A DNA stretch of 62,948 nt, the filler included, from a candidate division TA06 bacterium SM23_40 (GTDB taxonomy: Bacteria > LJUI01 > SM1-40): assembly GCA_001303705.1 (NCBI GenBank). It is 4 parts of 4 records of this genome, joined end to end, with 100 filler letters (N's around TTAATTAATTAA, not from the genome) between each part and the next. Parts side by side here need not be neighbours in the genome. Positions count along the whole stretch, not along the records: positions 1 to 17,004 come from LJUI01000047.1; 3 more parts are not named here. One strand, given 5' to 3'. A model generated the notes under the pieces. That model searched no databases. It was not told the origin of the DNA and was given only the letters and a program-made list of their open reading frames with translations. Position 1 is the first letter of the stretch; every line of letters starts with the position of its first letter. Both the position numbers and the translations under genes were made by a program. Shown here piece after piece: positions 1 to 34,370 of this stretch.

Positions 1-1
1 C

Positions 2-1645: not shown

Positions 1646-1797
1646 CGCGGGATGCCACCCGGATCGTGCAAATCGGCCCGCAGGAGTCACCTCGATCTGA
1701 GGAGCACTGAGTCACGTACTGACAACGGAGGTCTGCGTCCCAGCGATCAGGAGCAGTTCATTGCGACCGAGCGGCGTCGACCGGGAAGGTGCGGGCG

Positions 1798-2712: not shown

Positions 2713-2783
2713 CGCTCTCCTTCCCTTCTGCGACATGTCCGCATGGAGGGCCATTGGACGAGAGGATTCACGTCAGGCGGTCC

Positions 2784-3998: not shown

Positions 3999-4024
3999 GC
4001 GCCTCTGTCCCCCTGTTGATCTGA

Positions 4025-4531
4025 CTATTCCATCTCCTTGAACGTCTTGATGATCTCGTGTTCCGACTGAGCTTCGAGTAAGCTCCGCCGGAACTCCTCC
4101 ATCCGCACTAATGTCATGAGGTCTTTCAATACTTTAAGGTAGGTCCGGTCGTCATACGGCGGACTCACCATGACGAAGAAAAGGTGGCTCGGCCGCTTGT
4201 CGAGCGCATCGAAATCGATTCCCTCCGTCGATCTGGCAAACGCGATGACGAAGTCCTTGGCCTGGATCGTCCGGACGTGGGGGATCGCAACTCCGCTCTC
4301 GAGACCTGTTGTCGCCTTTTTCTCGCGATTGAACAGGTCGGTGAAGAGCTTGGATCGGTTCCCTATCTTGCCCGACCGCTCGAGGAGCTCGACCAGTTCT
4401 TCGAGAACTGCCTGCTTTACCTCCCACAGCAGGCGGTCCGGGCGCTCGCTCTCCCCGTCGGCGAACGCCTCCGGATCCGTCTCCAGTTCCATCTTGATGA
4501 GATCGGGCCGTAGATAACGCGCGATATTCAT
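4025..4531 (-). CDS. ptsN: PTS IIA domain protein (nitrogen-regulatory/fructose-type)
   Basis: REKKATTGLESGVAIPHVRT (phospho-His motif) and GIDFDALD. Start MNIARYL at 4531. Confidence 0.8.
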   Translation of the reverse strand: MNIARYLRPDLIKMELETDPEAFADGESERPDRLLWEVKQAVLEELVELLERSGKIGNRSKLFTDLFNREKKATTGLESGVAIPHVRTIQAKDFVIAFARSTEGIDFDALDKRPSHLFFVMVSPPYDDRTYLKVLKDLMTLVRMEEFRRSLLEAQSEHEIIKTFKEME

Positions 4532-4630
4532 CGCAAGTGCTGTGCCTCTTTCGGGTGCGATCGAACGATCCAGGGTTGCTCCCCAACAGGAGCCTTCTAT
4601 GGGCTGTCGTAACCTTCTCACTGTGCACAT

Positions 4631-4662
4631 CTTGACAAAGGGGTTGACGGTTTGTCAAGCCC
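4631..4662. promoter_or_regulatory. Inverted repeat CTTGACAAA-N11-TTTGTCAAG, probable operator/-35 region upstream of ptsN-rocD
   Basis: Perfect 9-bp inverted repeat at 4631-4639/4651-4659. Minus strand reads TTGACA-N18-CAAGAT. Near-identical to the proS promoter region at 62233-62256. Confidence 0.5.
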
Positions 4663-4741
4663 TAACCGGCATATTTCCCGGCGTGCGCGCCCTCGGACAG
4701 ACGATGGCTGGGGGCGTCGAAGACGCCCGGAAATGGTTCGA

Positions 4742-5539
4742 CTACTCCAGAGGGAGAAGGGGAATGGCGTCCGGTTCCGAGGCGGGCCTGCTGAGGTAGT
4801 AGCGGAAGGTGGTGGATAGTGTGGCGCCGGAGATATCTGCCCGCCACGTGCCGAACGGGCCGATCGTCTCCCGTGTCGTTCCCCCCAGAAGGTATCTGAA
4901 CTCGGACACCCAGGCGAGATGTTCGCCTGCAAACCATTCGATGCCGACAAGGGGGAAGAGACAGACTCCACTGTGCCACACAGTCTTTCGCGATTCGAGG
5001 TCATAGGTCTCACCTATGTCCGCACCGTCAGACTCGATCTGTCCCGAGAGGATCGTCACGCCGCCGCCGGCACCGACATAGAGGGATAGAGTCTGCGATG
5101 GGATCGTCAGATGCTGTATGACCGAGAGGGAAGTGAGATGCATGCTGCGACGGTACATCACTTCGGGAAAGATCGCAGCACGGCTTCTGTAGGAGAAGTC
5201 AGAGTATCGGAGGCTCGATGGCGGGGAGTACAGATGCTCTGCGCGGAATCCCCAATAGGGTCCGATGCCGCGCAGGAGGCTGATGGCCACGCCGGGCACC
5301 CCGCTGTCGTGCTGGCGCATCTCGAACTGGTGGTAACCATTATTGTCGGGATCGAGATATTGCGAGCGTGTCGAGAACGACAGGTCAAGCCAGCCGGCAG
5401 AGATGCCCAGTGCGGTCTTCCCCTCCAGGTCGACGCCCGATGCCGGTGGTGACGAGAGGAGCATCACGCCAGTCGCAAGCCCGAGGATGACGAAGCGGGG
5501 GAAGGCTATCTTCTCTAAGGGTGTCGGATTTCCTAACAT
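4742..5539 (-). CDS. Outer-membrane beta-barrel protein (8-stranded OmpA/OmpW-like)
   Basis: Signal peptide followed by alternating amphipathic strands (LYVGAGGG, LVGIEWF, SEFRY, TTFRYY). Confidence 0.65.
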   Translation of the reverse strand: MLGNPTPLEKIAFPRFVILGLATGVMLLSSPPASGVDLEGKTALGISAGWLDLSFSTRSQYLDPDNNGYHQFEMRQHDSGVPGVAISLLRGIGPYWGFRAEHLYSPPSSLRYSDFSYRSRAAIFPEVMYRRSMHLTSLSVIQHLTIPSQTLSLYVGAGGGVTILSGQIESDGADIGETYDLESRKTVWHSGVCLFPLVGIEWFAGEHLAWVSEFRYLLGGTTRETIGPFGTWRADISGATLSTTFRYYLSRPASEPDAIPLLPLE

Positions 5540-5663
5540 ACCTCAATGGGGGCAAACAGATGGCTTCTCCCTGCGGAGATTCAAAAATCGGCGCCTCCGA
5601 GAGCGGCGCCGAGGATGAAGATCGGTCGGTGTCCCTTGCCACCATCCCATCTCCCACAGCTCC

Positions 5664-5692
5664 ATTCTACGTATGATGTGCGAATCTGTCAA
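5664..5692 (-). promoter_or_regulatory. Sigma70-type promoter for the OMP gene
   Basis: Minus strand TTGACA-N17-TAGAAT. Confidence 0.75.
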
Positions 5693-5822
5693 GGAGATTC
5701 TGGCTCCGCCGCCATATCGGGCTGAGACGGCATTCCTCCCTGCGGGTCGGTCGGGCCCCCGCGTACAGGCCCTGGGGCCGGAGGCGGTGGACGCACAGAA
5801 ACGCGACGGGCCGAGCGTGTCT

Positions 5823-5851
5823 GCGCCCGGGGACGGGTGGTCCCCGGGCGC
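5823..5851. terminator. GC-rich hairpin downstream of the S8 protease gene
   Basis: GCGCCCGGGGAC-N5-GTCCCCGGGCGC, a 12-bp perfect stem. No clear U-tract. Confidence 0.4.
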
Positions 5852-6014
5852 TCGCGTCCGCTCCGTATGTTCGTATCATTTGACCCCATGAGAGATATGT
5901 CGTGTGTTAGCTCGATGTTGAAGGTGGCCCCTTTAGAGCGGATTCTTTCTCAGAGATGTCATGTTGTAACTGCCGGAGGTGCCTCGAGGCGCTGCCTCAC
6001 AGGGTCATATGATA

Positions 6015-9000
6015 CTATCTGAGGACGATCATCCGTCTCGTCAGTACCCTGCCGTCCGCCTCCAGGCGGCAGAAGTAGATGCCGCTTGCGACACGGGAGC
6101 CATGCGCGTCCGTGCCCACCCAGCGCACCCGATGGACGCCCGCCTGCCGCACCTCATCCATAAGGTAGGCAACACGCTGGCCCAGGATGTTGTACACGGC
6201 CAGGCGGACAGGTCCTCTCTTCGGCAGGGCGAACTCGATCTCCGTCTCGTCTCGGACAGGATTGGGGCGGTTCTGGCCGAGCGCGAGCTCGACGATCTGT
6301 TCCAGTTCTTCATCTCCGGCATCTCTCTCGACGCTCACGATGGGCCTCGTGGCGAACCCTACTCCCGAATCCCCGCTGAAGAACATCCTGTACGATTCAC
6401 CCTCGACGAAGATCTGCGGGGAGATGATTATGGTCTGATCCCAGCGTCCCGGCCCGCCTACGTCGAGTTCGCACCCATAATCACCGGGGCCGGTCTGTCT
6501 TGTCCAGATGATGCCATCTGGCGACGTAGCCGATCCGACACGGTACCTTCCGTCCTCTTCGACGATGCCGCCGTACCACATGCGGTATCTGTCGCCTTCC
6601 CAGACGACAAACGGATCCCAGACGCTCAACTGGTCGAAGCGTCCCGGATCGCCGCTCTCACTCAGGATCGGCGCGCCGTGTCGCGTCCAATTCACACCGT
6701 CCTGGGAGGTAGCGAGCCCGATCCTGTACAGGAAGTCGGGATAGCCGAACGCCGAGTACCACATGCGGTAGTCATCCGGCCCCGACTTCGATAGAAAGAG
6801 CCCGTATATGATGAACCAGTCCCAGCTGTAGTACTGACCGAGAAGGACGGGGTTGCCGCCGTACTTCTCCCACGTGATACCGCCGTCGGTCGAAGTGGCG
6901 TACCCGACCCCCGCGGTCGCGAGACCGTCGCTTCCGATGAACCACATCTTCAACGTATCGCCGTCCCTGATGACGAAGGGGCGCCAGACGAGCACATTAT
7001 CCCATCCCGAGGCGGACGGCGAGAGCACAGGGTTGGAGGGCTCCCGCTCCCACGTGAGCCCGCCATCGGTGGACGTCGCGAGCCCGATTTGGTAGACGGA
7101 GGCCATCGTATCTCCTCCCACTCCTGCGTACCACATCTTGAAGACTCCCTCATCTTCGAGCATGGTGCCGCCGACTACGAATGAGTCCCATTCGGTCGAG
7201 TCGCCAGGGGAGAAGACGGGGTTGAGCGGGCTCTTCACCCAGTTCGAGGTCCTCGGGACCCGTACCTCGAGGGTATAGACGAACTGGGTTCCCCGTTCGT
7301 CAGCGACGACGAGTGTGAAGTCTATCGTCTGGCCGACAGGGTGGCCGAGAGAGACCGTGAAGTCGAAGTCGTCGAATGTGGTAGCTATGCCTTCTTCCGG
7401 AATATCCCCGAACAGCTCGACGCTGTCGGTGATCGTAACGTATGGATCGGCCGTCGAGATGACGCCGCGCACCTCATGGCCGACCGCTGTGCCGCTGTTT
7501 CTGACCGAGACCGGGAGCTCGATCGACTCGCCCGGCTGGGCGACACCATCGCCGTTGCCCGCGCTCGTCCCCGAACTGTCATCATCGAGGTAGTAGTGCT
7601 CCAGGGTCAGGATCGGTATCGAGAGTCCGGAGGCGGCGAAGACGTCGGCGATGCCCCAGCCGTAGTCGTTATCGGGAGAGCTCGACTGGCTTGCGGTGCT
7701 GAGGAGCGCCTCGCGCACCTGCATCGGCGTCCACTCGGGGTGTATCTCGAGGAGGAGGCCGGCAGAGCCTCCGATGAGCGGCGTGGAGAATGACGTGCCG
7801 CTCCCGTACCCGTACGCCGTCGTGGTAGCCGGGTCGACAAGGTATGTGTCGACGCCGAGGGCGCACACCTCGGGCTTGGTGCGACCATCATAGGTCGGGC
7901 CGCGCGAACTGAAGGTGGCGATGATGTTCGATCGGTCGACAGCGCCGACGGCAATAATGCTGTCTGCGTCGGCCGGGGCGAGCATTGTCCCCGAGGCAGG
8001 GCCCTCGTTTCCCATGCAGTTGCAGACGACGATGCCGTTGTACGCCGCCCAGTCCGCGGCCTGGGTCGTCACCGCGCTGTCTCCGTTCATGTCAGGGTAC
8101 GTGTACCAGTCGATATATCCGAGTGAGCTGGAGACGACATCCGCGCCGAGGCTGTCGGCCCACTCGATCCCTTCGACCCACCAGTCCTCCTCCTGCGGGT
8201 ACTCGCCGGATGTGTCTTCGGTCTTGGCGAGGATAAAGCTCGCACCGTAGGCAGGTCCGATCAGGTTGCCATCGGAGAACCCCCCGAGAACAGAGAGGGT
8301 CGCTGTCCCGTGGTAGTCCTGGCCCGGCGGATCACCGGGCTCGTTCTCAGTGATATCATCATCGTTGATGAAGTCGTGCTCGGCGATGAGATCGATGCCC
8401 GTGAGTGCCTCATGGTGGCGGTTGAACCCGGTGTCGAGCATGCATACGATGACCCCGGCACCGCTGTATCCCAGCATGTGGAGGGGCAGTACATTGATCT
8501 GCTCAAGCTGGAAATCGGACAGTCCATAGTCCCATGAGAAGGCGCGGCCCGGCTGCTCTAACGGCGTAACGGCGCGGGGAGGGGCGGGGCGCACTTCCTC
8601 GCGGAAGGTTCTCCGATAGGAGACGAGAGGATTGATTGCCCGGACGAAGGGAAGCCGGGAGATCGCGCGGATCTGGTCCGGTGTGGCCTCGATGCTCACG
8701 GCGTTGAGCCAGCGCGATGTCGCGCGATGTTTCGCCCCGGTCGCCTCGATCGCTGCGATGTATTCTGATTTGACGGAGATGTCTCGGAAGTCGACGAGAT
8801 CGTCCTCTGCGCGCACCTTGGCGCGCCTGTGGAGCGTTCGCTCGGGAAATGCGGCACGGGCGGCGTCGAGGCGGGTCTGACATTCCCGTTCATCGAAGAT
8901 ACCTTTGTCCGTCAGGTAGACCCATACCTTGAGTCGCGCCTCGGGTCGGCCCTCCATCAGTTCACGAACCCGCGGCGAGATGAGCGGGATCCGCTGAGGT

Positions 9001-9119
9001 TGCGTGAGGGCAGGGTCGGTGAGGTGCTGGCCATGAGTCTGTTCAGCACCGGGCGGGGCAGCGCCCACGAAAAGGGCGGCTGCCAGGATGAGGATTCCGA
9101 ATCTTCGAGCTTGCTTCAC
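6015..9119 (-). CDS. Secreted S8 subtilase with Ig-like domain, GH32/43/130-like beta-propeller and FlgD-Ig/T9SS-like C-terminal domain
   Basis: GTG start after GAGGAGG and a signal peptide. Catalytic MLDTG, YHGT, GTSFS. Repeated (KM/RM)WY...IGLATSxDG..W blades. C-terminal QNRPNP...YNILGQRV...ASGIYFCRL. Confidence 0.88.
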   Translation of the reverse strand: MKQARRFGILILAAALFVGAAPPGAEQTHGQHLTDPALTQPQRIPLISPRVRELMEGRPEARLKVWVYLTDKGIFDERECQTRLDAARAAFPERTLHRRAKVRAEDDLVDFRDISVKSEYIAAIEATGAKHRATSRWLNAVSIEATPDQIRAISRLPFVRAINPLVSYRRTFREEVRPAPPRAVTPLEQPGRAFSWDYGLSDFQLEQINVLPLHMLGYSGAGVIVCMLDTGFNRHHEALTGIDLIAEHDFINDDDITENEPGDPPGQDYHGTATLSVLGGFSDGNLIGPAYGASFILAKTEDTSGEYPQEEDWWVEGIEWADSLGADVVSSSLGYIDWYTYPDMNGDSAVTTQAADWAAYNGIVVCNCMGNEGPASGTMLAPADADSIIAVGAVDRSNIIATFSSRGPTYDGRTKPEVCALGVDTYLVDPATTTAYGYGSGTSFSTPLIGGSAGLLLEIHPEWTPMQVREALLSTASQSSSPDNDYGWGIADVFAASGLSIPILTLEHYYLDDDSSGTSAGNGDGVAQPGESIELPVSVRNSGTAVGHEVRGVISTADPYVTITDSVELFGDIPEEGIATTFDDFDFTVSLGHPVGQTIDFTLVVADERGTQFVYTLEVRVPRTSNWVKSPLNPVFSPGDSTEWDSFVVGGTMLEDEGVFKMWYAGVGGDTMASVYQIGLATSTDGGLTWEREPSNPVLSPSASGWDNVLVWRPFVIRDGDTLKMWFIGSDGLATAGVGYATSTDGGITWEKYGGNPVLLGQYYSWDWFIIYGLFLSKSGPDDYRMWYSAFGYPDFLYRIGLATSQDGVNWTRHGAPILSESGDPGRFDQLSVWDPFVVWEGDRYRMWYGGIVEEDGRYRVGSATSPDGIIWTRQTGPGDYGCELDVGGPGRWDQTIIISPQIFVEGESYRMFFSGDSGVGFATRPIVSVERDAGDEELEQIVELALGQNRPNPVRDETEIEFALPKRGPVRLAVYNILGQRVAYLMDEVRQAGVHRVRWVGTDAHGSRVASGIYFCRLEADGRVLTRRMIVLR

Positions 9120-9285
9120 AGCACATACCTCCTCTCTCGGATCTTGCGTTGAGCGGCGCAAAATAGTCTGGTAAATGCGCGAGGTCGAGCAGGTGGGAGC
9201 TGGACGCTGAGTACCCACCTGAAGATACGTTTGACGCTTGTCCGGTGTTCCAGGGCGCTTGGTGCAGGCGGGATGCGATTCCATC

Positions 9286-11058
9286 TCAGGGGACCGCGAA
9301 CAGCGAGTCGGCCAGGCCGACGTCGAATTGGATCCCGACGACCTGCGTCTCGCCAACAAGCTGGTGCTGTACGAGCCGTCTGGTGACAAACGGGATGCGT
9401 CGTCCGCCAGCAACTGCCCGGTAGTCCTCGAACCGGGACTCCCTGATTATCGGCGCGTATGGGATCCGTTCTAGCAGCCGTCGGGGCAGCCCGTCGTGCG
9501 CGCTGACCCAGAGCTGGCTGGATGTGTAATCGCCCTGGCTCGCGCCGATCACCACCACGTCAATTCCGTCGACTACTTCTGTGTGGATGACGTCGGCAGC
9601 GATTCCCAGCTTGTCCGGCGGCGCGTCGTCCAGGTCGCCTGCAAGATGTTTCAGGAACTGCTCGGGTGAGAGGTTGTAGACGGCATAAAGCAGGTAGCCG
9701 AGACTCTGCGGCACGTCGGAGAGCCGTCCCTGCCCCGGGAGCGGCACGCCATAGTTGTAGATGAGCACCGAGTTTTCTCCGAGCTCGACACGCTCTTCGC
9801 CCGGCGGCCTGAAGAGAAGACGAATATCGAGTGTGGCTGCTCCTCCCTCCGCCTGGACGGCATACATAGTTCCGCGCTGGGTCAAGACCATGTCCCGGAC
9901 CGATTGTCCCTCGCCCTTCATTCTCTCGAAGATTCGGTACAGCTGCGAGCGGTCGGGCCCGCCACCACTCTTGATGCGGTCGCGAGATCGGGCCGGGAGG
10001 TGCGAGAATCCGATCTCGCCCACGCCAGGGCCTGCAGACAAGGTCGCCAGGACCGCGAGAGATCCGGGATCGAGGATGAAAATGCGCTTGGTCGCTCTAT
10101 CGATGAGCACCAGCCGGTCGCCCTCCGGTGTGAATGCACCGAAGCCGGGAGACTCACCTAGTGCCAGGTTGCGATAGGGTGAGATCTCGAGGCTATCCTC
10201 GAAATTCGTCTGAAAAGTGATCACCAATCCTACTCTTGGTTCGTCGCCCTCAGCCTCCGCCTCGGTCGCCACCACGAGCTGGGTCCCGTCCGGGCGCACC
10301 ATGATCGAGCGGGGCGCCCTGTCGAGCGGGATGGTGCGGACCGCCTTGAGCGTCGCAGTGTCGATGATAGTGATATCGCGGGACAGAACGTTGGCTGTTA
10401 TCACATAGCGTCCGTTCGGCGAGATGGCGATGTCGTACGGGTCGTTGCCAACCTCGATCTCGGCAGCAATCACGCGCTCCTCGGTATCGTAGACGGTGAT
10501 CTTGTCATAGGTGCGCGCCTCATCGGGGGAGTAGGTGCCGGGGATGTGTCTCTGACAGATATACAGCCAGCGATCGTCAGGAGTGAGAACGGCCCGCCAC
10601 GGATTCGGGATCTCGACCGATGCTGTGGAGATGAGAAATCCGGTCTCGGCGTCGAACTCATGGACAGCATCGGAGATTACGTAGTAGCGGCTCCCGTCAC
10701 TGGTGAAGACCGGATTGACCAGAGGGGTGGTCTTGATGGCGTGAGTCGCCGTCTCGATGATTGTAGTTTGATATCCGCGGCGGTTGGCTACCCATATCTC
10801 CTCGCCGCCGGGCCGCACCCTGATCGACTCCGGTCCATCGCCGGCATAGATCTTGCCGATCGCTCGAGCCTCATAAGGGTCTATTATCAGAATATGATTG
10901 CGGTCGCGGATCGACACGTAGCCGAGGACGACGAGTTCTGTCTCCTGGACCTGGCAGCCGAACATCAAGGTGGCGGCGAGGAGAGCAGCGGCGATCAGGA
11001 GGAGCAGCCATCTCCGTAGGGCGAGATGAGAGAGGGCGGTAAGGATAGTACGATACAT
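9286..11058 (-). CDS. Lipoprotein with YVTN-type beta-propeller and C-terminal LolA-like domain
   Basis: Lipobox LMFGC. YVTN repeats (IEVGNDPYDIAISPNGRYVITAN). C-terminal QLWVSAHDGLPRRL...RFEDYRAVAGGRRIPF...QFDVGLADSLF. Confidence 0.7.
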   Translation of the reverse strand: MYRTILTALSHLALRRWLLLLIAAALLAATLMFGCQVQETELVVLGYVSIRDRNHILIIDPYEARAIGKIYAGDGPESIRVRPGGEEIWVANRRGYQTTIIETATHAIKTTPLVNPVFTSDGSRYYVISDAVHEFDAETGFLISTASVEIPNPWRAVLTPDDRWLYICQRHIPGTYSPDEARTYDKITVYDTEERVIAAEIEVGNDPYDIAISPNGRYVITANVLSRDITIIDTATLKAVRTIPLDRAPRSIMVRPDGTQLVVATEAEAEGDEPRVGLVITFQTNFEDSLEISPYRNLALGESPGFGAFTPEGDRLVLIDRATKRIFILDPGSLAVLATLSAGPGVGEIGFSHLPARSRDRIKSGGGPDRSQLYRIFERMKGEGQSVRDMVLTQRGTMYAVQAEGGAATLDIRLLFRPPGEERVELGENSVLIYNYGVPLPGQGRLSDVPQSLGYLLYAVYNLSPEQFLKHLAGDLDDAPPDKLGIAADVIHTEVVDGIDVVVIGASQGDYTSSQLWVSAHDGLPRRLLERIPYAPIIRESRFEDYRAVAGGRRIPFVTRRLVQHQLVGETQVVGIQFDVGLADSLFAVP

Positions 11059-11130
11059 TATTGCATTTTCCTCCTCACGGTCACACTGAGGAACGTGGTG
11101 GATCCGCGGGCTCTGTCGCCCGAGATGGCG

Positions 11131-11781
11131 CTAGGGCGTGGCCGATTCGGCGTTCAGTATCTGAGTGATGAATTCTGCCTCAGTCACCGCCCCGACGAAC
11201 TGGACTGTCTCGTTGATGACAGTCTTGGGGACCCCGGAGACGTCGTACTTGTGGGCCAGATGGGGAAACTCGATGGCCTCGACCATATCGGCACGGACGA
11301 GGTCAGACTCTATCGCCGACCGGTGCGCCAGGCGAACTGCCTGGGTGCAATAGGGTCAGGTGGGTGTGACCAAAACCTGAATATGGACCGGTTTCGTAAG
11401 TCCGGCGAGCTTCTCGCGCGAGGCATGAGCCAACCCTGAATCTCCTTGTGAAACATCGATGATGTCCTCGATCAACGATGCGGTCTCATACCCGGCAGGT
11501 ATCCCGTAGAATCGGAGGCCGTAGTCCTTTGTCCCCTCGATAACGGTCGCGGGTATCTTGTCGATGCCGTACCGCTCGACTATCTGTTGATCAATCTGGA
11601 AATCGTAGACCTCGAGCGAGATCTTCTCTGATGTCTCCGCGATCTCCTCCAGCAGCCTCCTCGTCTCGCCGCAGAACTGACACTCCAGCTCCTGAGTGAA
11701 GTTGACCACCTTCACCTGCCCGGCCAGGACCTTAAACCGGTCCCGGATGGTCTCTTTATCTTTGGGAGCTATGAGAGCCAT
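11131..11781 (-). CDS. Protein disulfide oxidoreductase (two thioredoxin folds), selenoprotein with Sec142 (UPYC)
   Basis: N-terminal CQFC and GIPAGYE. The TGA at 11356-11358 falls in VTPT-U-PYC, and the frame continues 74 codons (AIEFPHLAHKYDVSGVPKTVIN) to TAG at 11131. RBS GAGGAGGAG. Confidence 0.9.
11324..11349 (-). promoter_or_regulatory. Bacterial SECIS-like hairpin
   Basis: Directly 3' of the UGA: TGCACCCAGGC-AGTTC-GCCTGGCGCA. The apical loop starts 17 nt after the UGA with G at loop position 2. Confidence 0.75.
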
Positions 11782-11884
11782 TTTCTCCTCCTCGCGCGAG
11801 CTTGTGCTCTTTGCACATCGCGGCCATCCTGCGAACGCGGCAGGCAACACGGCAGAAAGGGTGTGCTCCGAGTGAGGTGTCAAG

Positions 11885-11913
11885 ACGATACCGCCTCGTA
11901 CAGGCGGTGTCAA
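11885..11913 (-). promoter_or_regulatory. Sigma70-type promoter for the seleno-oxidoreductase operon, with palindromic spacer
   Basis: Minus strand TTGACA-N17-TATCGT. The spacer is the inverted repeat ACCGCCT-N5-AGGCGGT. Confidence 0.6.
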
Positions 11914-12216
11914 CGCATATTTGCCGTCGGTGTGTGCCAATTCACTCAATCGGAAGGGCGAAATCTCAAACGGGGGAACAACCCACTGGATTCGCGATTA
12001 GCGGGATTGGGGGTCGGATGGTTGCACTCTGGTGCGAAGAAAGACACAGCACGGGGGGTGGGGAGGGCACGGCCGTGCTGCGTGCGACCGCCGCGGCCCG
12101 ACGGCGGGAGGAAGGGGCCCACCGATCGATGCACTAAGCCGCCATTTTCCGGGGTGTTATGCCGTCCACAAATCCGAGTGTATGGAGCAAGCGACATCGG
12201 CCGGTACACACCGTCG

Positions 12217-12232
12217 TGGCACACTTCTTGCT
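12217..12232 (+). promoter_or_regulatory. Sigma54 (-24/-12) promoter upstream of the bEBP gene
   Basis: TGGCAC-ACTTC-TTGCT matches TGGCAC-N5-TTGCW. Confidence 0.8.
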
Positions 12233-12307
12233 AAATTGGGACACCGGCACGAGCCCGGTTCCGCAGGGCAATGGACCGCATCTACCACCCCACAAATACT
12301 GAGGCTT

Positions 12308-13801
12308 ATGCGTTCATCGACGATATCGCCTTTGGGCCCGACAGAGACGCAGGAGGAGACAGGGCGCAAGGAGGGTGCGGAGGGATTCCTGGTGCTCGTG
12401 GCTTCTCCGGAGGCCGGATATCGGGACACCCTTCTGCCGCTCATTCTTCGAGAGGGTTGGTCATTCTCCTGGGCGGAGACCGCCGAGCAGGCACTCCGTA
12501 AGTTCGAGCGCTCCGATCCCGCGGTGGTGTTGTTGGCCACCGATCTCGCCGGCTCGTCAGCCCTGAAGCTCCTTTCCCGGATCAAGGAGCATTCGGACGA
12601 GCAGGAAGTGATTGTCATCACCCAGAATCCGGACGTCCAGACGGCGGTCGAGGCGACGCGGCTGGGAGGAAATGAGTACATCTGTCTCGATTCTCAGATC
12701 GATCGCCTGCGTGAGCGGCTGGAGGGGGCGTACGACGAGTGGATGGCTCGACAGAACCGGGCGGGCGACGCTGCCTGGAAGCAGCGGCGATACGGCCTGG
12801 AGAATATCATCGGGGAGAGCCCGGTGATGCAGGAGGTGTACACGTGGGCGGAAAAGATCATCGCGAGTGACTCGGTGACCGTGTTGATCAGAGGAGAGAC
12901 GGGGACGGGCAAGGAGCTCCTCGCCCGGGCAATGCATTATGGAAGCGCCCGTGGGAAGCAGCCATTCGTGGAGATCAACTCCACCGCGATCCCCGACGAT
13001 CTTCTGGAGGCTGAGCTGTTCGGGTACGAGAAGGGAGCGTTCACCGATGCCAAGAGGCAGAAGAAGGGGCTTCTCGAGCTCGCCAACGGCGGTTCGCTCT
13101 TCTTCGATGAAATCGGTCACATGAGCATGAAGCTCCAGCTCAAGCTGCTGAAGGTCGTGGAGGAGAAGGTCTTTCGCCGTGTTGGAGGGGTCAAAGACAT
13201 CAGCGTGGATGTGAGGATAATGGCGGCCACAAGTCGCGACCTGGAGGCGGCCCTGCGGGATGGGTATTTCCGCGAAGACCTGTACTATCGACTGAACGTC
13301 GTCTCCATCGAGTTACCGCCACTCCGGGAGCGTGGCGGCGACATCATTCTCCTGGCCAACCACCTCGTGAAACGGTTCAACAAGGAATACAGCCGGGAGA
13401 TCGAGGGGATCTCGGCCGAAGCCGAGCGCCTGCTCATGGCGTACGAGTGGCCGGGGAACGTGCGGGAGCTCAAGAATGCGATCGAGCGCGCTGTCCTCCT
13501 CGGCAATGGGAGGCTCATCGTCCCTGAGGACATCCGGATCAGCCTGCGGGTCGATACGGCCCTGAAGGATCAGGGACGAAGACAGAAAGGATCGGGCATC
13601 ACTCTGGAGGTGCCGCTCGAGGATTTCTCTTTTGCCGAGGTGGAGAAGGCCGTAATCGCCGAGATCCTCAAGATGAACGGCTGGAATAAGAGCAAGGCGG
13701 CGAGAATGCTAGACATATCCCGGCCCAGACTGCTGAGAAAGATAAAGAGGTACGGTCTGGAGAGGGATGGATCCGAGCCAGGAGACGGGACCTGTCCATG
13801 A
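12308..13801 (+). CDS. Sigma54 enhancer-binding protein (NtrC/Fis family) with degenerate aspartate-less receiver domain
   Basis: Walker A GETGTGKE, ELFGYEKGAFTDA, Walker B FFDEIG, FREDLYYRL, WPGNVREL, Fis-type HTH. The receiver has VLVASPE, VLLATDL and YICLD in place of DD, D and KP. The start is placed downstream of the sigma54 promoter. Confidence 0.9.
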   Translation: MRSSTISPLGPTETQEETGRKEGAEGFLVLVASPEAGYRDTLLPLILREGWSFSWAETAEQALRKFERSDPAVVLLATDLAGSSALKLLSRIKEHSDEQEVIVITQNPDVQTAVEATRLGGNEYICLDSQIDRLRERLEGAYDEWMARQNRAGDAAWKQRRYGLENIIGESPVMQEVYTWAEKIIASDSVTVLIRGETGTGKELLARAMHYGSARGKQPFVEINSTAIPDDLLEAELFGYEKGAFTDAKRQKKGLLELANGGSLFFDEIGHMSMKLQLKLLKVVEEKVFRRVGGVKDISVDVRIMAATSRDLEAALRDGYFREDLYYRLNVVSIELPPLRERGGDIILLANHLVKRFNKEYSREIEGISAEAERLLMAYEWPGNVRELKNAIERAVLLGNGRLIVPEDIRISLRVDTALKDQGRRQKGSGITLEVPLEDFSFAEVEKAVIAEILKMNGWNKSKAARMLDISRPRLLRKIKRYGLERDGSEPGDGTCP

Positions 13802-13946
13802 ACAACTGTAACGAAATAGATCTGCTGAACTGGGACAGATCCGGCGATTGTGCAAAGGTCAGGGAAAGCGAGCGGCCGGACGGGGCGCTGACTAACGTTC
13901 TCGGGTTCAGTGAATTAGCGGAGTCAGCCGGGATGGGAGAGCGGTC

Positions 13947-13962
13947 TGGCACAAGTATTGCT
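13947..13962 (+). promoter_or_regulatory. Sigma54 (-24/-12) promoter upstream of the ZU5-like lipoprotein gene
   Basis: TGGCAC-AAGTA-TTGCT. Confidence 0.82.
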
Positions 13963-14088
13963 TCACTAGTTGAGCGAACGTCGGAACAGGGCACGCCGGA
14001 GAGGCCGGCGGGCCTGACCCGATCCAGTACGGGACGAAACGATATCCCGAGATGGGGTCGCACAGGAGCTCGGGCTCCGAGGAGGTAC

Positions 14089-14649
14089 ATGATGCGTTCG
14101 CTCAACACGACACGGGGTTGGCTTGTGGGAGGACTGTTGATACTCATACTTGTCCTCGTTGGGTGTAGCCGGGACGACTCCCCGATTGCTCCGTCGGGGC
14201 CGGCAGCACTGGAACCGGATACGAGGACGGAACTGAATTTCCTCCCTATCGTAAATCCCGGGGGCGAGGGCCCTGCCAGAGGCCCGTGGATTCCGATACT
14301 GATCTGGGACAGGTTCAAAGACGACGGCGGCGAGCTCGATAACGGCCTCATCAGATTGGTGATCCCGGAAAACGCGCTCGGAGACGAAGCGTACATCTGG
14401 ATCTTCAGAGATCCTTTCTACGCGAAGGCTACCTTCGGCCCGGAAGGCCTCCGCTTCGCGAAGAAGGTGGAGCTGCGCTTCGATCTCGACTACGTTCAGT
14501 TGGGCTCGCTAAGCCCGGATGACGTTAGCATATGGTGGTTCGACGATGACTTGAATGAGTGGGAGAGGCTCGATACGTGGTTTGACCAGTCAGAGAGGGA
14601 GGTGGTTGCGGAGATCCGTCACTTCTCGGTATACGCGCTCTCCGATTAA
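14089..14649 (+). CDS. Lipoprotein with ZU5-like domain ending in HFS-VYALSD
   Basis: RBS GAGGAGG and lipobox LVGC. GGEL..IRLVIPENAL...FGPEGLRFAKKVEL...W...HFS is the ZU5-like pattern. Confidence 0.72.
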   Translation: MMRSLNTTRGWLVGGLLILILVLVGCSRDDSPIAPSGPAALEPDTRTELNFLPIVNPGGEGPARGPWIPILIWDRFKDDGGELDNGLIRLVIPENALGDEAYIWIFRDPFYAKATFGPEGLRFAKKVELRFDLDYVQLGSLSPDDVSIWWFDDDLNEWERLDTWFDQSEREVVAEIRHFSVYALSD

Positions 14650-14658
14650 GTGTCAACT

Positions 14659-14697
14659 GTCGGAGCCCCTGATTGGAGGTGTGTCGGGGGCTCCGAC
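14659..14697 (+). terminator. Stem-loop between the lipoprotein and TPR-HD-GYP genes (terminator or mRNA stabiliser)
   Basis: GTCGGAGCCCCTGA...TCGGGGGCTCCGAC, about 14-bp stem. No U-tract. Confidence 0.45.
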
Positions 14698-14758
14698 CGA
14701 ACAGTCAGCCTTGACGAAGAGTGGTTTCCCTCTTCGTACACGCTGAGAGGAGCCAAAG

Positions 14759-16675
14759 ATGAAAGCCAGAGAGTCTCTCTCTCTGGAACAGCTTCTAGTG
14801 CTCTTGCAGAAGATTCGGTCTGCACCGGGTGTAGACCGGCCCGACATTGATGAGCCCGAAGCTGAAGAGATAATGGTCGATGGCGACGCCTTCGACCGTC
14901 TCAGGCGTTGGGTGGCCGATGGCGCTATTCCGGGCGAGGACGTGATCAAGCTCGGCCTTGTCAAGGATTCGCCTGAACAGGGTGAGTCCGCCACTCAGCC
15001 ACTCAAATTGACGGAGCGAGATCGTCTGGTGGTGTTGATGGAGGCCGGGAAGGTTCTGGCGTCAATGTATGACTGGGATCGGTCCATAGATTGTTACCGG
15101 GAGGCGCTGGAGATCTGCGAAAGACTAGAGGATACCGAGGCAAAGGCAGAGGCCTCCAAGCAGATCGGACGCCTCTATCGTCGTAAGAATCAATGGAAGG
15201 AGGCACTCGGCGCCTACGAGAAGAGCCTTGAGATGTACCGCGCGCTCGGCGATCTCGAAGGTGTGGCTCAAATTCACAACTCGCTGGGCATCATCTACTT
15301 CGAAAACGGCAAGTGGGACGAGGCGAAGGAGCGGTATCACGAGGCGCTGGAGGTAGCAGAGGAGCTCTCGAACTTCTTGCTCATCGCGAAGATAAACAAC
15401 AACCTGGGTGCTCTGGCGAATGCGATGGGCGACTGGGATCGGGCGGTCATTCACTATCAGGAAAGTGTGCCGGGGTTCGAGAAGGCCGGCGACCTGAAGG
15501 GGTTGGCGGAGACCTACCACAACCTCGGGATGACCTTTGCCGATCAGGGAAATCTGGAGAAGGCAGCCGAGTACTACGAGAGAAGCCTCGATCTCTCAAA
15601 GGAGCTTGGAGATCAGCGGCTGATGTCCGGCACTTTTATCAACCGGGCACACCTGTTTGCCAGAGAGGGCAATTACGACAAAGCCAAGGAGTACTGCGAT
15701 CGCGCACTGGCGATGCTCGACAGGCTCGGCGACAAGCTCGGCATCGCTGAAGTGTACAAGCTCTACGGTATGCTCCACCGCGAGCGGGAAGAGTGGGAGA
15801 GCGCGGAGCACTTGCTTCTGCAGAGTATCGCTTTAGGTGAAAAGATTCTCAATCCGCTCGGTGTGGCAGAGGCGTGCCACGAGCTCGGACTGGTGTACGA
15901 ACGCATGGGCGAAGGGAAGAAGACCTTGAAGCTGTTGACCAAGTCGCTCGACATCTTCAAGGAGCTTCGTGCGAGGAGGAGCATACTCCAGCTGAACCGA
16001 GAGCTGACAGAGGTCGAGAAGCTGTACCTTCGCATTCTGGAATCGATGGGTGCGGCGGTTGAAGCGAAGGATCCGTACACCCACGGTCATTCCCGGCGCG
16101 TGGCAAACTACTCACTTGAACTCGCCAGTAGATTCGAGGTTTCCGAAGAAGAGGCGAAGGGCATCTTGAGCGCGGCATATCTCCACGATGTGGGGAAAGT
16201 CTACATCGACGAAACGATCTTGATTAAACCGACAAGACTGACCGATGACGAGTACGAGCTGATCAAGCAGCATCCCAGGCTCGGCCTCCGCATGCTGGAG
16301 TCTGTCGAGTTCCCGTGGACGGTCAAGCCGCTCATCCTGCACCACCACGAGCACTTTGACGGGTCGGGATATCCCGACGGATTGAGCGGGAACGACATCC
16401 CCTGGGGTGCAAGACTCATCTTCGTGGCCGACTTCTTCGACGCCATGACGTCGGATCGGCCCTATCGAGCAGCCTGGGCAGTAGAGGAGACGATCAAGGT
16501 AATTCTTCACAACAGAGGAACATTGTTCGATCCCGAGATCGCTGATGTCTTCATCGACCTCGTGAAGAGCGAAGCCGCCCCTATTCAGGAGGATATCGCG
16601 TGTCGATTTGAGCGCGTGAAGAGCGCGCTGGAAAGCGGTCGCACGGCGGCATCCGAGGTCGAAGTTCGCTCATAG
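14759..16675 (+). CDS. TPR-repeat HD-GYP cyclic-dinucleotide phosphodiesterase
   Basis: About 8 MalT/Rap-like TPRs (AQIHNSLGIIY, AKINNNLGAL, AETYHNLGM), then KDPYTHGHSRRV, LHDVGK, HHEHFDGSGYPDGL, ADFFDAMTSDRPYR. No signal peptide or TM segment. Confidence 0.9.
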   Translation: MKARESLSLEQLLVLLQKIRSAPGVDRPDIDEPEAEEIMVDGDAFDRLRRWVADGAIPGEDVIKLGLVKDSPEQGESATQPLKLTERDRLVVLMEAGKVLASMYDWDRSIDCYREALEICERLEDTEAKAEASKQIGRLYRRKNQWKEALGAYEKSLEMYRALGDLEGVAQIHNSLGIIYFENGKWDEAKERYHEALEVAEELSNFLLIAKINNNLGALANAMGDWDRAVIHYQESVPGFEKAGDLKGLAETYHNLGMTFADQGNLEKAAEYYERSLDLSKELGDQRLMSGTFINRAHLFAREGNYDKAKEYCDRALAMLDRLGDKLGIAEVYKLYGMLHREREEWESAEHLLLQSIALGEKILNPLGVAEACHELGLVYERMGEGKKTLKLLTKSLDIFKELRARRSILQLNRELTEVEKLYLRILESMGAAVEAKDPYTHGHSRRVANYSLELASRFEVSEEEAKGILSAAYLHDVGKVYIDETILIKPTRLTDDEYELIKQHPRLGLRMLESVEFPWTVKPLILHHHEHFDGSGYPDGLSGNDIPWGARLIFVADFFDAMTSDRPYRAAWAVEETIKVILHNRGTLFDPEIADVFIDLVKSEAAPIQEDIACRFERVKSALESGRTAASEVEVRS

Positions 16676-16847
16676 CGGAGCAACAGAAGAGAAACGCGAT
16701 GTGAGGGGGAACCTTCCTGGCCTGGAAATAGAGAGGAATAGACGCGGGGCCGCGCGAATTCGTCGGGTTCCTGGGTCTGTAGCCAGCGTGTTAGGTTCCC
16801 CCTTCGTTATGTACCGCGGGCCTGTCGGTTGACATACACGATGGAGA

Positions 16848-17004
16848 AGATGTGTCACGGCGCCGGCCAGCTACATCGAGCGTGCGGGAGATGTATCACG
16901 GCGCCGGCCAGCTACATCGAGAGTGTGAGAGATGTATTGCGGAGCCGGCCAGCTACATCGGGTGTGCGGTGGATGCGCTGCGGCGGCGGCCAGCCAGATC
17001 GGGT
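16848..17004. repeat. 41-bp tandem repeat, at least 4 copies, running into the contig end
   Basis: Units start at 16848, 16889, 16930 and 16971. Consensus AGATGTATCACGGCGCCGGCCAGCTACATCGAG-GTG-G-G with internal inverted repeat GATGTA/TACATC. Confidence 0.9.
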
Positions 17005-17104
17005 NNNNNNNNNNNNNNNNNNNNNNNNNNNNNNNNNNNNNNNNNNNNTTAATTAATTAANNNNNNNNNNNNNNNNNNNNNNNNNNNNNNNNNNNNNNNN
17101 NNNN
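17005..17104. other. Artificial contig linker
   Basis: N44-TTAATTAATTAA-N44, giving stops in all six frames. Confidence 0.98.
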
Positions 17105-17251
17105 AGCGGTGAGGCGATGGCGACGGCGTCGAGCGAGCCGTGGAATCTGATATCACGTGATGTACAGGCGATCGTATCGGGAGTGTATCTGTTTTCGGTC
17201 GAGTATGATAATGGAGATGTACAGGTAGGCAAGTTTGTGGTGATCAAGTAG
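17105..17251 (+). CDS. C-terminal fragment of a T9SS-like sorting-domain protein (not in ORF track)
   Basis: Reads SGEAMATASSEPWNLISRDVQAIVSGVYLFSVEYDNGDVQVGKFVVIK*, a typical CTD ending. Confidence 0.75.
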   Translation, partial: SGEAMATASSEPWNLISRDVQAIVSGVYLFSVEYDNGDVQVGKFVVIK

Positions 17252-17293
17252 GAGGAGATGAACGATCAGATGACACCTGAGGGAGGAGGGACC

Positions 17294-18637
17294 ATGCGCC
17301 CGTTCTGCTGTCGCATCGGCTGGTTGATGCTACTCATTCCATTCATCGCCATCGTGGGTCTGCTGATTAACGGATGCGAGAAGGAACTCGTCGAACCGGA
17401 AGACCCTGACGCTCCCATTATCAACAGTCTCACGGCGGATCCCCCGACGATCGGTATCCGTGGAAGGGTCACGCTGAAGTGCATCGCAGCTGACCCGGAA
17501 CACAATAAGGACTTCACATTCAGCTGGAGCAGCACGGCAGGCTCGTTCGTCAATTCCAACGGTGACTCGACAACCCACCCCGATCTCTCTGTTCACGCGA
17601 ACTATGCAACCTGGAATGCGCCTGACACCCCACAGGATGTGACGATGACGGTTGTGGTTGACGATGAGACGAACCAGACATCACAAAGCGTCGGGGTCCG
17701 GGTGACTGCTTACGAGCTGGTGGCCTATTGGGGGATGGTCGAAGCAGCAGGCGATTCCACGCACCATCCAGGCATGCTCGACATGCCGCGAGGCGTTGAG
17801 ATCGTAGGAGACTACTGCTACGTCGCCGACTGGGGCAACGATCGCATGCAGCGTTTCAGTCGACTCGATGGTACGTACGATACGTTGTGGACATTCGTTG
17901 TCTCCGGCCCGGACACGGTCGATATCGACGGTCCGATCGACATTGCCGCCGATGATGCTGGCAATGTCTTCCTCGTCGATCACCGGCGTCTGTACAGGTT
18001 CGATGCAGTGGGGCAGGACATCGTCTTCGATAGGTATGCCAGTGTCCCGGATTCCTTCTCGATCGGACTCGCGACCGATGCGGGCGGCAACGTTTATCTC
18101 TCGAGAGGGAACAGCGGAACCATCCGAGGATACGACGGGGATAACCTGAGCTCGCTGCCATCTCTCGTGACAGGCCTCTCCTCGCCTCGCGGGATCACTT
18201 TCGATCCGGGAGACGATTTCTTGGTGGTCGACTATGACCGCATTCCCTTTGCCGATACCATCGCGCCCGACAGTATCGTCTATGACACTACCACGGTCTC
18301 CTGGATCTTGCGGTACGAGGCCCCAGCCTACGTAGTGGTGAGTGATACGATCGGGCAGTATGGCGAAGCCGGGGACGGAGAGCTGTACGTTCCGTTCGCT
18401 CTCGCGTACGGCGCATTCGACGACGCCGTCTTCGTTACTGACCTGGGAGGTTCGGGTGATCCCCTCCTCACCCGGGTCGTGATGTTCTCCTCAGACGGCA
18501 CGTTCCAGCTCGAGTGGGGGAGTGCCGGCGGGGCGCTCGAGAGCTTCAATGCACCGCTGGGCCTGGCCGCCGACGACGAGGGATTCGTCTACGTCTCCGA
18601 TACGGGCAACAACGCGATCAAGAAGTACTCGCCATAG
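17294..18637 (+). CDS. Lipoprotein with Ig-like domain and NHL-repeat beta-propeller
   Basis: RBS GGAGGAGG and lipobox INGC. NHL repeats (YVADWGNDRMQRF; FNAPLGLAADDEGFVYVSDTGNNAIKKY). Confidence 0.8.
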   Translation: MRPFCCRIGWLMLLIPFIAIVGLLINGCEKELVEPEDPDAPIINSLTADPPTIGIRGRVTLKCIAADPEHNKDFTFSWSSTAGSFVNSNGDSTTHPDLSVHANYATWNAPDTPQDVTMTVVVDDETNQTSQSVGVRVTAYELVAYWGMVEAAGDSTHHPGMLDMPRGVEIVGDYCYVADWGNDRMQRFSRLDGTYDTLWTFVVSGPDTVDIDGPIDIAADDAGNVFLVDHRRLYRFDAVGQDIVFDRYASVPDSFSIGLATDAGGNVYLSRGNSGTIRGYDGDNLSSLPSLVTGLSSPRGITFDPGDDFLVVDYDRIPFADTIAPDSIVYDTTTVSWILRYEAPAYVVVSDTIGQYGEAGDGELYVPFALAYGAFDDAVFVTDLGGSGDPLLTRVVMFSSDGTFQLEWGSAGGALESFNAPLGLAADDEGFVYVSDTGNNAIKKYSP

Positions 18638-34040: not shown

Positions 34041-34140
34041 NNNNNNNNNNNNNNNNNNNNNNNNNNNNNNNNNNNNNNNNNNNNTTAATTAATTAANNNN
34101 NNNNNNNNNNNNNNNNNNNNNNNNNNNNNNNNNNNNNNNN
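34041..34140. other. Artificial contig linker
   Basis: N44-TTAATTAATTAA-N44. Confidence 0.98.
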
Positions 34141-34354: not shown

Positions 34355-34370
34355 AGCAAGAGACATGCCA
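34355..34370 (-). promoter_or_regulatory. Sigma54 (-24/-12) promoter
   Basis: Minus strand TGGCAT-GTCTC-TTGCT, about 140 bp upstream of the secreted-protein start. Confidence 0.72.

Follow-up and report, generated by a model that had tools for sequence, protein, structure and literature searches.

A conserved gene module pairs a small lipoprotein of predicted ZU5 fold with cytoplasmic TPR signalling proteins and sigma-54 activators

Arrays of TPR repeats bind short C-terminal peptides, as in Hop, PEX5 and the RRNPP receptors. The propeptides of RRNPP systems (Rap-Phr, PlcR-PapR, NprR-NprX, PrgX) are about 40–60 amino acids (aa) long and are cut by external proteases. These are described as two-gene systems of Gram-positive Firmicutes and mobile elements (PMC10075063). 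For ZU5-like domains, the available part of one account gives H-F-S as the autocleavage motif of PIDD and Nup98, and in PIDD, Nup98 and CARD8 places the motif at the end of the domain, ahead of a long last strand (PMC3210808). For bacterial toxins and surface proteins, ZU5 has also been proposed to act as an autopeptidase in processing; as far as the excerpted text goes, the bacterial ZU5 domains of Zhang et al. (2012) belong to toxins and to large surface proteins, and small lipoproteins with TPR partners are not among them (PMC3482391). In RcbAB of Vibrio vulnificus, a TPR domain is described as repressing the fused cyclic di-GMP (c-di-GMP) enzyme until a partner relieves the repression (PMC12282931). 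Here we analyse a locus of the candidate division TA06 bacterium SM23_40 that brings such elements together. The stretch of DNA analysed (the window, 62,948 bases) was put together, with runs of N at the joins, from several contigs of an assembly that has 189 contigs and 2.88 Mb in all. The module within it comprises three co-oriented genes, for a sigma-54 activator (bacterial enhancer-binding protein, bEBP), a lipoprotein and a TPR-HD-GYP protein. An earlier reading made from the sequence alone (the sequence-only reading) had described these genes and two consensus sigma-54 boxes ahead of them, and all were recovered where it had placed them (Table 1).

The linkage of the lipoprotein gene to its neighbours was followed in 400 comparison genomes, all related to the source at the domain level only. 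Based on a profile of the lipoprotein and two paralogues, the family is matched in 71 of 401 genomes (E ≤ 1e-6). We fetched 40 loci, 20 of them picked for short open reading frames (ORFs) with a near-full-length match and 20 of mixed kinds. Neighbouring genes were found by phmmer with queries from the window proteins and two loci, and Pfam was run on 128 neighbour proteins of the first 20 loci, leaving out four very long or marginal proteins. The 40 loci contain 43 profile-positive ORFs, and a subfamily of 31 was defined by a length of at most 300 aa and the motif H[FY][STC] within the last 32 residues.

A TPR gene lies within 3 kilobases (kb) of the lipoprotein gene in 19 of the 31 cases and within 300 nucleotides (nt) in 14; one further kinase (L072) is TPR-bearing by Pfam, which brings the count of TPR neighbours to 20. 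Within the same 3 kb, a sigma-54 activator is found in 11 of 31, a Ser/Thr kinase (Pkinase) in 6 and an HD-GYP gene in 5. The -24/-12 boxes recur as well, since a sigma-54 box with at most one mismatch is near the lipoprotein gene in 9 of 31. Among the other 12 profile-positive ORFs a TPR neighbour occurs in only two, both with HFS-type tails and overlong ORF calls. TPR matches more than 3 kb from a ZU5-type gene are few (L083, and a second one in L084), and intergenic gaps of 7–13 nt are common in the module loci. Apart from that of the window, 10 family codes are represented among the genomes with TPR-linked loci.

Genome records were also scanned independently for the exact motif HFSRYAL[SA]D, which gave six loci. 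Five of these combine a bEBP, a TPR-HD-GYP protein and the lipoprotein, and the sixth is a lone lipoprotein gene. Gene order in four of the five triads is bEBP, TPR-HD-GYP, lipoprotein; the fifth has the gene order of the window, with another HD-GYP gene ahead. Among the holders are one metagenome-assembled genome (MAG) of the Gemmatimonadota and one of the Krumholzibacteriota; the others are unclassified. Because the three parts are kept together in permuted order, we regard them as a functional unit, and this is the strongest single argument for it. The sequence-only reading had put the three genes forward as one signalling circuit, and their linkage is indeed conserved in other genomes. We conclude that the conserved module is very probably real and that the lipoprotein and the TPR protein are, with good probability, functionally coupled.

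Two triad loci from one genome family code (L057 2712–5393, L059 4394–6120) have a REC-GAF-HD-GYP gene ahead of the activator. L057 adds a REC-GGDEF gene and L059 a single REC gene, and the upstream genes overlap the activator gene. At these loci the module is embedded in a larger string of c-di-GMP genes.

The output of the TPR partner varies. Based on Pfam in the first 20 loci, it is an HD-GYP domain, a Ser/Thr kinase, a cyclase together with an NTPase, or none. The TPR-Ser/Thr kinase variant is followed by a GAF histidine kinase, with a PP2C gene near, and the cyclase variant combines an adenylate/guanylate cyclase with a STAND-type NTPase. A protein with TPR repeats only adjoins the activator in seven loci (L058, L060, L061, L064, L079, L084, L093) and a hybrid kinase in one. 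All 15 TPR partners checked are free of hydrophobic segments. The lipoprotein tail differs between these classes: after HF it reads SRYAL[SA]D in the class with activator and TPR-HD-GYP protein, S[HQ]YA[VMI]AW in the TPR-HD-GYP pairs of one genome, S[RK]Y[IV]IATGPP... in the kinase class and SKYG[VI]S in the cyclase class. Genes for SBP_bac_5 and an oligopeptide ABC ATPase adjoin two module loci (L061 8320–11128, L065 3788–5515) and could serve peptide uptake.

The lipoprotein itself has a signal peptide, MMRSLNTTRGWLVGGLLILILVLVGC, with the lipobox LVGC. The lipobox Cys column is retained in at least 90% of 79 homologues, and a crude lipobox pattern matches 56 of them. The window protein has no Pfam or NCBIfam match of its own, and a word-based homologue search with it returned only its own cluster. 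The profile recovers 1122 cluster representatives (E ≤ 1e-3), many of them proteins of 170–220 aa with the matched domain at the C-terminus. Pfam ZU5 (PF00791, E ≤ 1) is weakly matched by 40 of the 79 homologues, the best at 1e-6, and the family profile matches ankyrin ZU5 chains with an E value of 3.5e-5.

The AlphaFold2 (AF2) model of the lipoprotein has a predicted local distance difference test (pLDDT) score of 85.6. Foldseek relates it to ankyrin ZU5 with a probability of 1.00, and VIA-align superposes 111 residues on the same domain with Z 12.5 and a root-mean-square deviation of 2.2 Å, covering model residues 68–186, that is, up to the last residue. Lower-ranked matches are the GAIN domain of CD97 (Z 9.4) and rat NLRP1 (Z 7.0). 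Based on this model the lipoprotein has a ZU5 β-sandwich fold. The ZO-1 ZU5 entries 2kxs and 2kxr also rank high (Z 9.6, 26% identity); their title implies a partner peptide, and judged by that title they may represent an earlier case of a peptide that completes a ZU5 fold.

The end of the domain is where conservation is strictest. Across the 79 homologues the motif has H in 79 and F in 78 (HYS in the other), followed by S in 65, T in 13 and C in one, so that position three is S, T or C throughout. Ser, Thr and Cys are the residues able to start acyl-shift autoproteolysis. From this nucleophile to the C-terminus the tail measures 6–10 residues in 74 of 79 homologues, and in the AF2 model it forms the last strand inside the ZU5 sandwich. 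The call of a ZU5 lipoprotein with an HF|S site, made in the sequence-only reading, therefore agrees with both the fold and the motif counts. Judged from the motif, self-cleavage at HF|S is slightly favoured.

The TPR-HD-GYP protein agrees with its earlier description as an enzyme with about eight TPRs and no transmembrane segment: a search for hydrophobic (membrane) segments found none, and both domains are strongly matched (Table 1). The array also matches TPR_MalT (3.1e-18). Against RNPP_C (PF18768) it scores 26.1 bits, where the cut-off is 26.5; no single stretch passes, and general TPR families score far higher. The translation contains the HD-GYP motifs GHS, LHDVGK, QHP, HHHEHFDGSGYP and DAMTSDRPYR, by which the domain appears catalytically intact and is predicted to degrade c-di-GMP. 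The spacer between the lipoprotein and TPR-HD-GYP genes holds two stable hairpins (minimum free energy -52.6 kcal/mol, z -5.3), a stability that none of 200 shuffles attains. A terminator scan found none on this strand, and the hairpins may set the ratio of lipoprotein to TPR-HD-GYP product.

The activator matches Sigma54_activat (PF00158, 2.6e-66), AAA_lid_14, HTH_8 and, weakly, Response_reg (41.4 bits). An alternative start, an in-frame GTG near 12393, lies behind GGAGGG. The closest solved relative is Aquifex NtrC1 (E 1.5e-96); the AAA+ domain also has FleQ (1.7e-71), VpsR and FlrA chains as solved relatives, which rank below the NtrC1-type chains. The translation has a Walker A motif GETGTGK and FFDEIG. 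As had been noted from the sequence, the receiver is devoid of its phosphorylation residues: aligned with NtrC1, the acidic pair is P,E, the phospho-Asp is Ala (VVLLATD) and the Lys is Leu, with Thr retained, and a second alignment to canonical receivers gave the same substitutions. These features place the protein among the NtrC-family AAA+ activators, and by its residues it is not a phospho-accepting response regulator. The same tendency is seen across the module. All 11 module receivers that were aligned are without the acidic pair and the Lys, with the Asp retained in 7, and three module activators are without any receiver (L098, L099, L101) and overlap the start of the TPR-HD-GYP gene. 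The sigma-54 contact loop GAFTGA reads GAFTDA in the window activator; of 16 module activators, 13 have this variant or GAYTDA, as do 3 of the genome's 18 activators.

Related architectures occur elsewhere in the genome. Two giant single chains, C4:7529–13021 (1830 aa) and C147:5223–10124 (at least 1634 aa), combine Pkinase, AAA_16 (STAND NTPase), TPR, GAF and sigma-54 activator domains. Perfect sigma-54 boxes lie 3' of the C4 giant gene, at C4:13465, ahead of an 832-aa repeat-rich ORF, and at C4:17080. There are also two more pairs of an activator followed by an HD-GYP gene (C65:14061–17451 and C65:24879–28071). One of them consists of a 1445-aa ORF, an activator with a canonical receiver, a perfect sigma-54 box at C65:15762 and then the HD-GYP gene; the 1445-aa ORF had no annotation in any family scan.

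The sigma-54 boxes of the locus stand out from background. The two boxes of the module, at 12217 and 13947, are the only perfect matches to TGGCAC-N5-TTGCW in the window. Allowing one mismatch there are four, compared with a mean of 0.83 in shuffled sequence, where 2 of 100 shuffles reach four. The other two lie on other window contigs (34355–34370 and 42561–42576, both on the - strand). Genome-wide, 29 sites match NGGCAC-N5-TTGCW, including 19 that start with TGGCAC. The box at 12217 is 76 nt ahead of the activator ATG at 12308, and L101 is one further module locus with a box ahead of its activator gene. A perfect 12-nt palindrome, GCACGGCCGTGC, at 12067–12078, about 140–150 nt ahead of the activator -24 box, is a candidate binding site distinct from the element ahead of the lipoprotein genes.

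That element (13806–13842) sits 105–140 nt ahead of the -24 box at 13947 and aligns with an equivalent element ahead of both paralogous lipoprotein genes of this genome. The pattern TGTAAC-N14-24-TGGRAC has only two occurrences in the genome, each ahead of a lipoprotein gene, and the looser TGTAAC.GAAW has seven matches, three of them ahead of lipoprotein genes. The paralogues, on other contigs, are 49% and 43% identical to the window protein, and both are lipoproteins ending in HFSRYALSD. Their boxes read AGGCAC or CGGCAC-N5-TTGCT, with a mismatch at the first base, and lie about 128 nt from the start codon, equal to the spacing in the window. The three upstream regions and leaders align with a mean column identity of 71%. 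Rfam gave no family in window positions 11000–18000 (E ≤ 1) or at the paralogue loci (gathering score), and the conserved leader is thus no known riboswitch. A metagenome scan with the three-paralogue alignment found six loci, all apparently the organism's own paralogues (100%, 49% and 48% identity). Because promoter type, spacing and upstream element are shared, the promoter sequences suggest that the three lipoprotein genes form one regulon, a single regulator on all three promoters being the simplest reading. By its adjacency, the window activator is the candidate for this role. It may also act on its own promoter, although the upstream element was not found ahead of the box at 12217.

Table 1. 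Positions of the module features in the window, of the paralogous genes on other contigs and of the contig joins
Feature	Position	Strand	Basis or remark
Sigma-54 -24/-12 box (TGGCACACTTCTTGCT) ahead of activator	12217..12232	+	Perfect TGGCAC-N5-TTGCT
Sigma-54 activator (bEBP) gene	12308..13801	+	Pfam
Degenerate (phospho-dead) receiver	12422..12721	+	Weak Response_reg, alignment to NtrC1
AAA+ sigma-54 interaction domain	12806..13312	+	Pfam
HTH_8 DNA-binding domain	13631..13753	+	Pfam 6.4e-13
Conserved upstream element (CTGTAACGAAA ... CTGGGACAGA)	13806..13842	+	Candidate activator binding site
Sigma-54 -24/-12 box (TGGCACAAGTATTGCT) ahead of lipoprotein	13947..13962	+	Perfect TGGCAC-N5-TTGCT
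Conserved leader, about 115 nt	13963..14088	+	CGCCGG...CCGGCG hairpin, AGGAGG ribosome site
Lipoprotein gene (predicted ZU5 fold), 186 aa	14089..14649	+	Lipobox Cys codon 14164-14166
H-F-S motif, residues 178-180	14620-14628	+	Predicted self-cleavage site
C-terminal tail SVYALSD	14626-14646	+	Candidate ligand; protein ends HFSVYALSD
Two stable hairpins, lipoprotein/TPR-HD-GYP spacer	14659..14750	+	No U tract
Cytoplasmic TPR-HD-GYP protein gene, 638 aa	14759..16675	+	Pfam, no hydrophobic segment
TPR array, residues about 92-420 (about 330 residues, roughly 8 repeats)	15032..16018	+	TPR_12 2.9e-53
HD-GYP phosphodiesterase domain	16055..16540	+	HD_5 PF13487 4.9e-39
Paralogous ZU5 lipoprotein genes (L006, L007)	C28:7963-8631 and C107:4004-4711
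N runs (contig joins, C166, C167 ... C170)	17005-17104, 34041-34140, 41792-41891

How might the lipoprotein act on the TPR protein? The reading that we prefer is that the TPR array senses the C-terminal tail of the lipoprotein, to which we give a probability of roughly 45%. It is drawn from three observations: the pairing survives changes of output domain and gene order, no other feature of the lipoprotein is as conserved or as unusual as its tail, and TPR arrays are known to bind peptides of this kind. The activator would switch on the lipoprotein genes through their -24/-12 promoters. The lipoprotein would be exported and lipidated, and its ZU5 domain would cut itself between Phe and Ser of H-F-S by the chemistry of PIDD, Nup98 and FIIND. 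The last strand (SVYALSD or SRYALSD) would be retained in the fold until release. The tail would then enter the cytoplasm either as a re-imported free peptide or as the tail of an unexported precursor, and be bound there by the TPR array. Binding would switch the HD-GYP activity, hence c-di-GMP turnover, and, directly or indirectly, the receiver-less activator, which would close a feedback loop.

In the model the tail is a strand within the ZU5 sandwich, and it would thus be a stored peptide, released on unfolding or degradation of the domain. Such release would suit the sensing of envelope damage better than the counting of cells, and the tail's low diversity agrees with this. The most specific form of the tail-ligand reading is that the ZU5 self-cut stores a peptide of 6–10 residues as the last strand and that, once released, this peptide is read by a cytoplasmic TPR receptor in diderm bacteria. 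We consider this form doubtful. The further claim that such peptides work through an HD-GYP domain, a kinase, a cyclase or a sigma-54 activator, and so amount to peptide signalling on a new principle, is tentative to the same degree.

Complex prediction was run with TPR residues 85–425 and lipoprotein residues 150–186 (the last 37), using our own alignments. The score was 0.57 (runs 0.60, 0.53 and 0.57) compared with 0.02 for the best of three controls; between runs, at least 66% of contacts agree, and the partner has a pLDDT of 40–43. This lends weak support to the contact that the sequence-only reading had suggested modelling. In the benchmark 116 of 157 solved complexes reach the mark, as do 2 of 215 mismatched pairs, figures that hold only roughly here because of our own alignments; at scores up to 0.60 it is reached by only 18 of the 157 solved complexes and by both passing mismatches. 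Many TPR-peptide complexes have been solved, and a pass may therefore reflect likeness to them. The sequence-only reading had further held that the lipoprotein supplies the signal for the TPR protein. That idea, in which binding, cleavage and uptake are predicted steps, fits the apparently cytoplasmic TPR partners, their varied outputs and the weak support from the complex score.

Several points weigh against the tail as ligand. The lipoprotein should be outside and the TPR protein inside, and a transport step is therefore needed; no transport gene was found in the window locus, and an Opp-like gene is adjacent in 2 of the first 20 loci only. In the model the tail is buried as a strand and would not be free unless released. 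Its sequence is also very similar between distant genomes, whereas RRNPP pheromones are diversified. At the level of the complex score obtained, a pass is wrong more often than right unless the contact was probable beforehand, and cleavage, export, uptake and tail binding are all predictions. The tail varies in step with the partner class, which fits co-diversification, but common ancestry could by itself produce an equal pattern. As to the linkage, the locus counts are not independent: one genome gives five pairs and others two or three, with several loci contributed by each of G301, G050, G191, G337, G340, G369 and G056. The loci were also selected by ORF size and match span. Finally, 11 of the 31 subfamily genes, including both paralogues of this genome, are without a TPR neighbour.

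Three other explanations were weighed. The lipoprotein may be output only, that is, an envelope or surface protein switched on by the activator, with the TPR array sensing another cue. The HFS motif would then be retained for folding or for the lipoprotein's own maturation. The sigma-54 boxes ahead of lipoprotein genes are as expected under this explanation, and so is the setting of the two paralogues: neither adjoins an activator or TPR gene, and both adjoin right-handed β-helix surface proteins, one of which carries a type IX secretion system (T9SS) sorting domain. The C107 lipoprotein gene lies 35 nt upstream of its β-helix gene. A structural role is moreover described for the buried Phe of HFS or SFS in the part of the source available (PMC3210808). 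The same source notes, however, that the non-cleaving ZU5 domain of UNC5b has Leu in place of the essential Phe of CARD8 (PMC3210808). A mere target gene would also not readily account for a pairing that outlasts a complete change of regulator (kinase, cyclase, HD-GYP or no bEBP) as well as changes of gene order, and the tight spacing of 7–13 nt suggests co-translation of partners. Both parts of this explanation, the passive output and the motif kept for folding or maturation, seem rather unlikely to us.

Precedents for control of an activator by a bound partner are PspF/PspA and the chaperone-coactivator pairs of type III secretion. By analogy, the TPR protein could hold the receiver-less activator, and the tail of unexported lipoprotein could titrate the TPR protein away, so that the system would monitor export. 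The precursor would accumulate under envelope or secretion stress, self-cleavage and uptake would be unneeded, and the HD-GYP domain would be a second output. Much of the gene arrangement agrees with this: the TPR-only protein beside the bEBP in seven loci, the three receiver-less activators that overlap the start of the TPR-HD-GYP gene, the degenerate receivers in 11 of 11 aligned, and the C4 and C147 chains, which fuse TPR arrays to sigma-54 activator domains in a genome with further adjacent TPR/bEBP pairs. The complex score, obtained with an uncleaved 37-residue C-terminus, fits equally. Without cleavage, however, the strict S/T/C at motif position three (79 of 79) is unexplained, and no bEBP lies close to the kinase-TPR and cyclase-TPR variants. 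Titration by the unexported tail, and likewise accumulation of precursor under stress, we judge unlikely.

About as improbable is the loop through a cyclic dinucleotide with which the sequence-only reading had closed its circuit, and in which the HD-GYP enzyme sets the level of c-di-GMP or cGAMP and the activator binds the dinucleotide as FleQ or VpsR do. It is compatible with the tail as TPR ligand. The HD-GYP motifs are intact, and the genome, with one rpoN (6.7e-58) and 18 strong bEBP matches, also holds 9 GGDEF and 8 HD_5 matches. The REC-GAF-HD-GYP genes ahead of the L057 and L059 triads, with their REC-GGDEF and single REC companions, and the presence of FleQ, VpsR and FlrA among the solved AAA+ relatives point the same way. 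Yet the closest of these relatives are NtrC1-type, not FleQ or VpsR. Because many variants keep the activator and the TPR protein without an HD-GYP domain, a messenger is not required for coupling. Direct contact between the TPR protein and the activator looks at least as likely as control of the activator by a cyclic dinucleotide, given the variants with TPR repeats only, the activators devoid of a receiver and the chains that fuse TPR, GAF and activator domains. A chance meeting of three common signalling genes, which are indeed frequent in this genome, is highly improbable, since the combination recurs, also in permuted order, in genomes with 10 other family codes and since adjacency in 14 of 31 is far above the density of about 10 ORFs per 2.9 Mb that match the TPR array (E ≤ 1e-8).

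The surroundings of the module are short. Its contig spans window positions 1–17004, and window genes past 17004 are therefore not its neighbours. Upstream on the opposite strand are a thioredoxin-like gene, a β-propeller protein and an S8 peptidase, and farther upstream an aminotransferase, a PTS EIIA-like gene and a HEAT-repeat protein. As the sequence-only reading had stated, no histidine kinase is encoded on the 17,004-base contig (translation and Pfam), a weak negative given its shortness, and none was found in the 2 kb downstream of it that are covered by a 100%-identical metagenome contig. The latter reaches 2 kb beyond the HD-GYP gene and contains a 41-nt tandem repeat and no large gene. 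The repeat lies just 3' of the HD-GYP gene (window 16848–17004; metagenome contig L020 6084–6418), with 8.2 copies and 76% matches, and the contig end falls inside it.

If the pairing has the meaning that it suggests, a widespread family of small lipoproteins, the 1122 cluster representatives, gains a function, and cytoplasmic TPR signalling proteins of several output classes gain a candidate ligand. With no histidine kinase involved, the module would connect envelope events to c-di-GMP turnover and sigma-54 transcription, and the ZU5 self-cleavage of animal cell-death and inflammasome proteins would enter bacterial signalling. If the peptide reading in particular is true, the module would represent a bacterial equivalent of the tethered agonist of GAIN domains or of the 'functional degradation' of NLRP1, and the first RRNPP-like pair of receptor and pro-peptide outside Gram-positive bacteria. 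Even if the peptide idea fails, the TPR-paired activators with phospho-dead receivers or none raise the question of how the activator is controlled.

A search of open-access PMC and bioRxiv main texts found no description of the module. The cassette thus looks undescribed, and its logic, in which the gene of an exported pro-ligand adjoins that of a cytoplasmic TPR receptor, is known. Among sigma-54 activators, FleQ, VpsR and FlrA resemble the module activator in their atypical receivers and c-di-GMP context, but NtrC1-type chains are closer to it in sequence. PspF, controlled by PspA, is similar in that an activator without a working receiver is presumably controlled in trans by a product of its own regulon; the partner here is a TPR protein, not PspA, and no psp genes were seen nearby. 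RcbAB shares the N-terminal TPR region on a c-di-GMP enzyme and relief by the product of an adjacent gene. It differs in that the enzyme is a cyclase (TPR-GGDEF) and the partner a cytoplasmic TPR protein, and the available part of the account mentions no sigma-54 activator (PMC12282931).

The lipoprotein shares with PIDD, Nup98, FIIND (NLRP1, CARD8) and GAIN the fold and the H-F-S at the end of the domain, ahead of the last strand, as far as the excerpted account describes them (PMC3210808). In the members of this autoproteolytic superfamily the cut leaves a second domain, whereas the module protein ends seven residues after the predicted cut and would yield a free peptide; its context is a bacterial lipoprotein, and its cleavage is predicted from the motif. 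As with the GAIN tethered peptide, the strand beyond the cut would be retained by the fold.

The closest likeness is to RRNPP pairs. In both, the gene for a cytoplasmic TPR receptor lies beside that for an exported precursor, the last few residues of the precursor would be the ligand, and the precursor gene may be controlled by the system itself. However, the hosts of the module appear to be diderm, with T9SS sorting domains present. Its precursor is a folded lipoprotein of 170–260 aa with a putative self-cleaving ZU5 domain, unlike RRNPP propeptides, its tail is conserved where RRNPP peptides are diversified, and its outputs are HD-GYP, kinase, cyclase or sigma-54 activator instead of HTH or phosphatase. 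What would be new relative to RRNPP is a self-cleaving lipoprotein as precursor, with sigma-54 and c-di-GMP as outputs. The module thus works most like an RRNPP pair, yet it is no member of that family, from which it differs in output, precursor type and host group.

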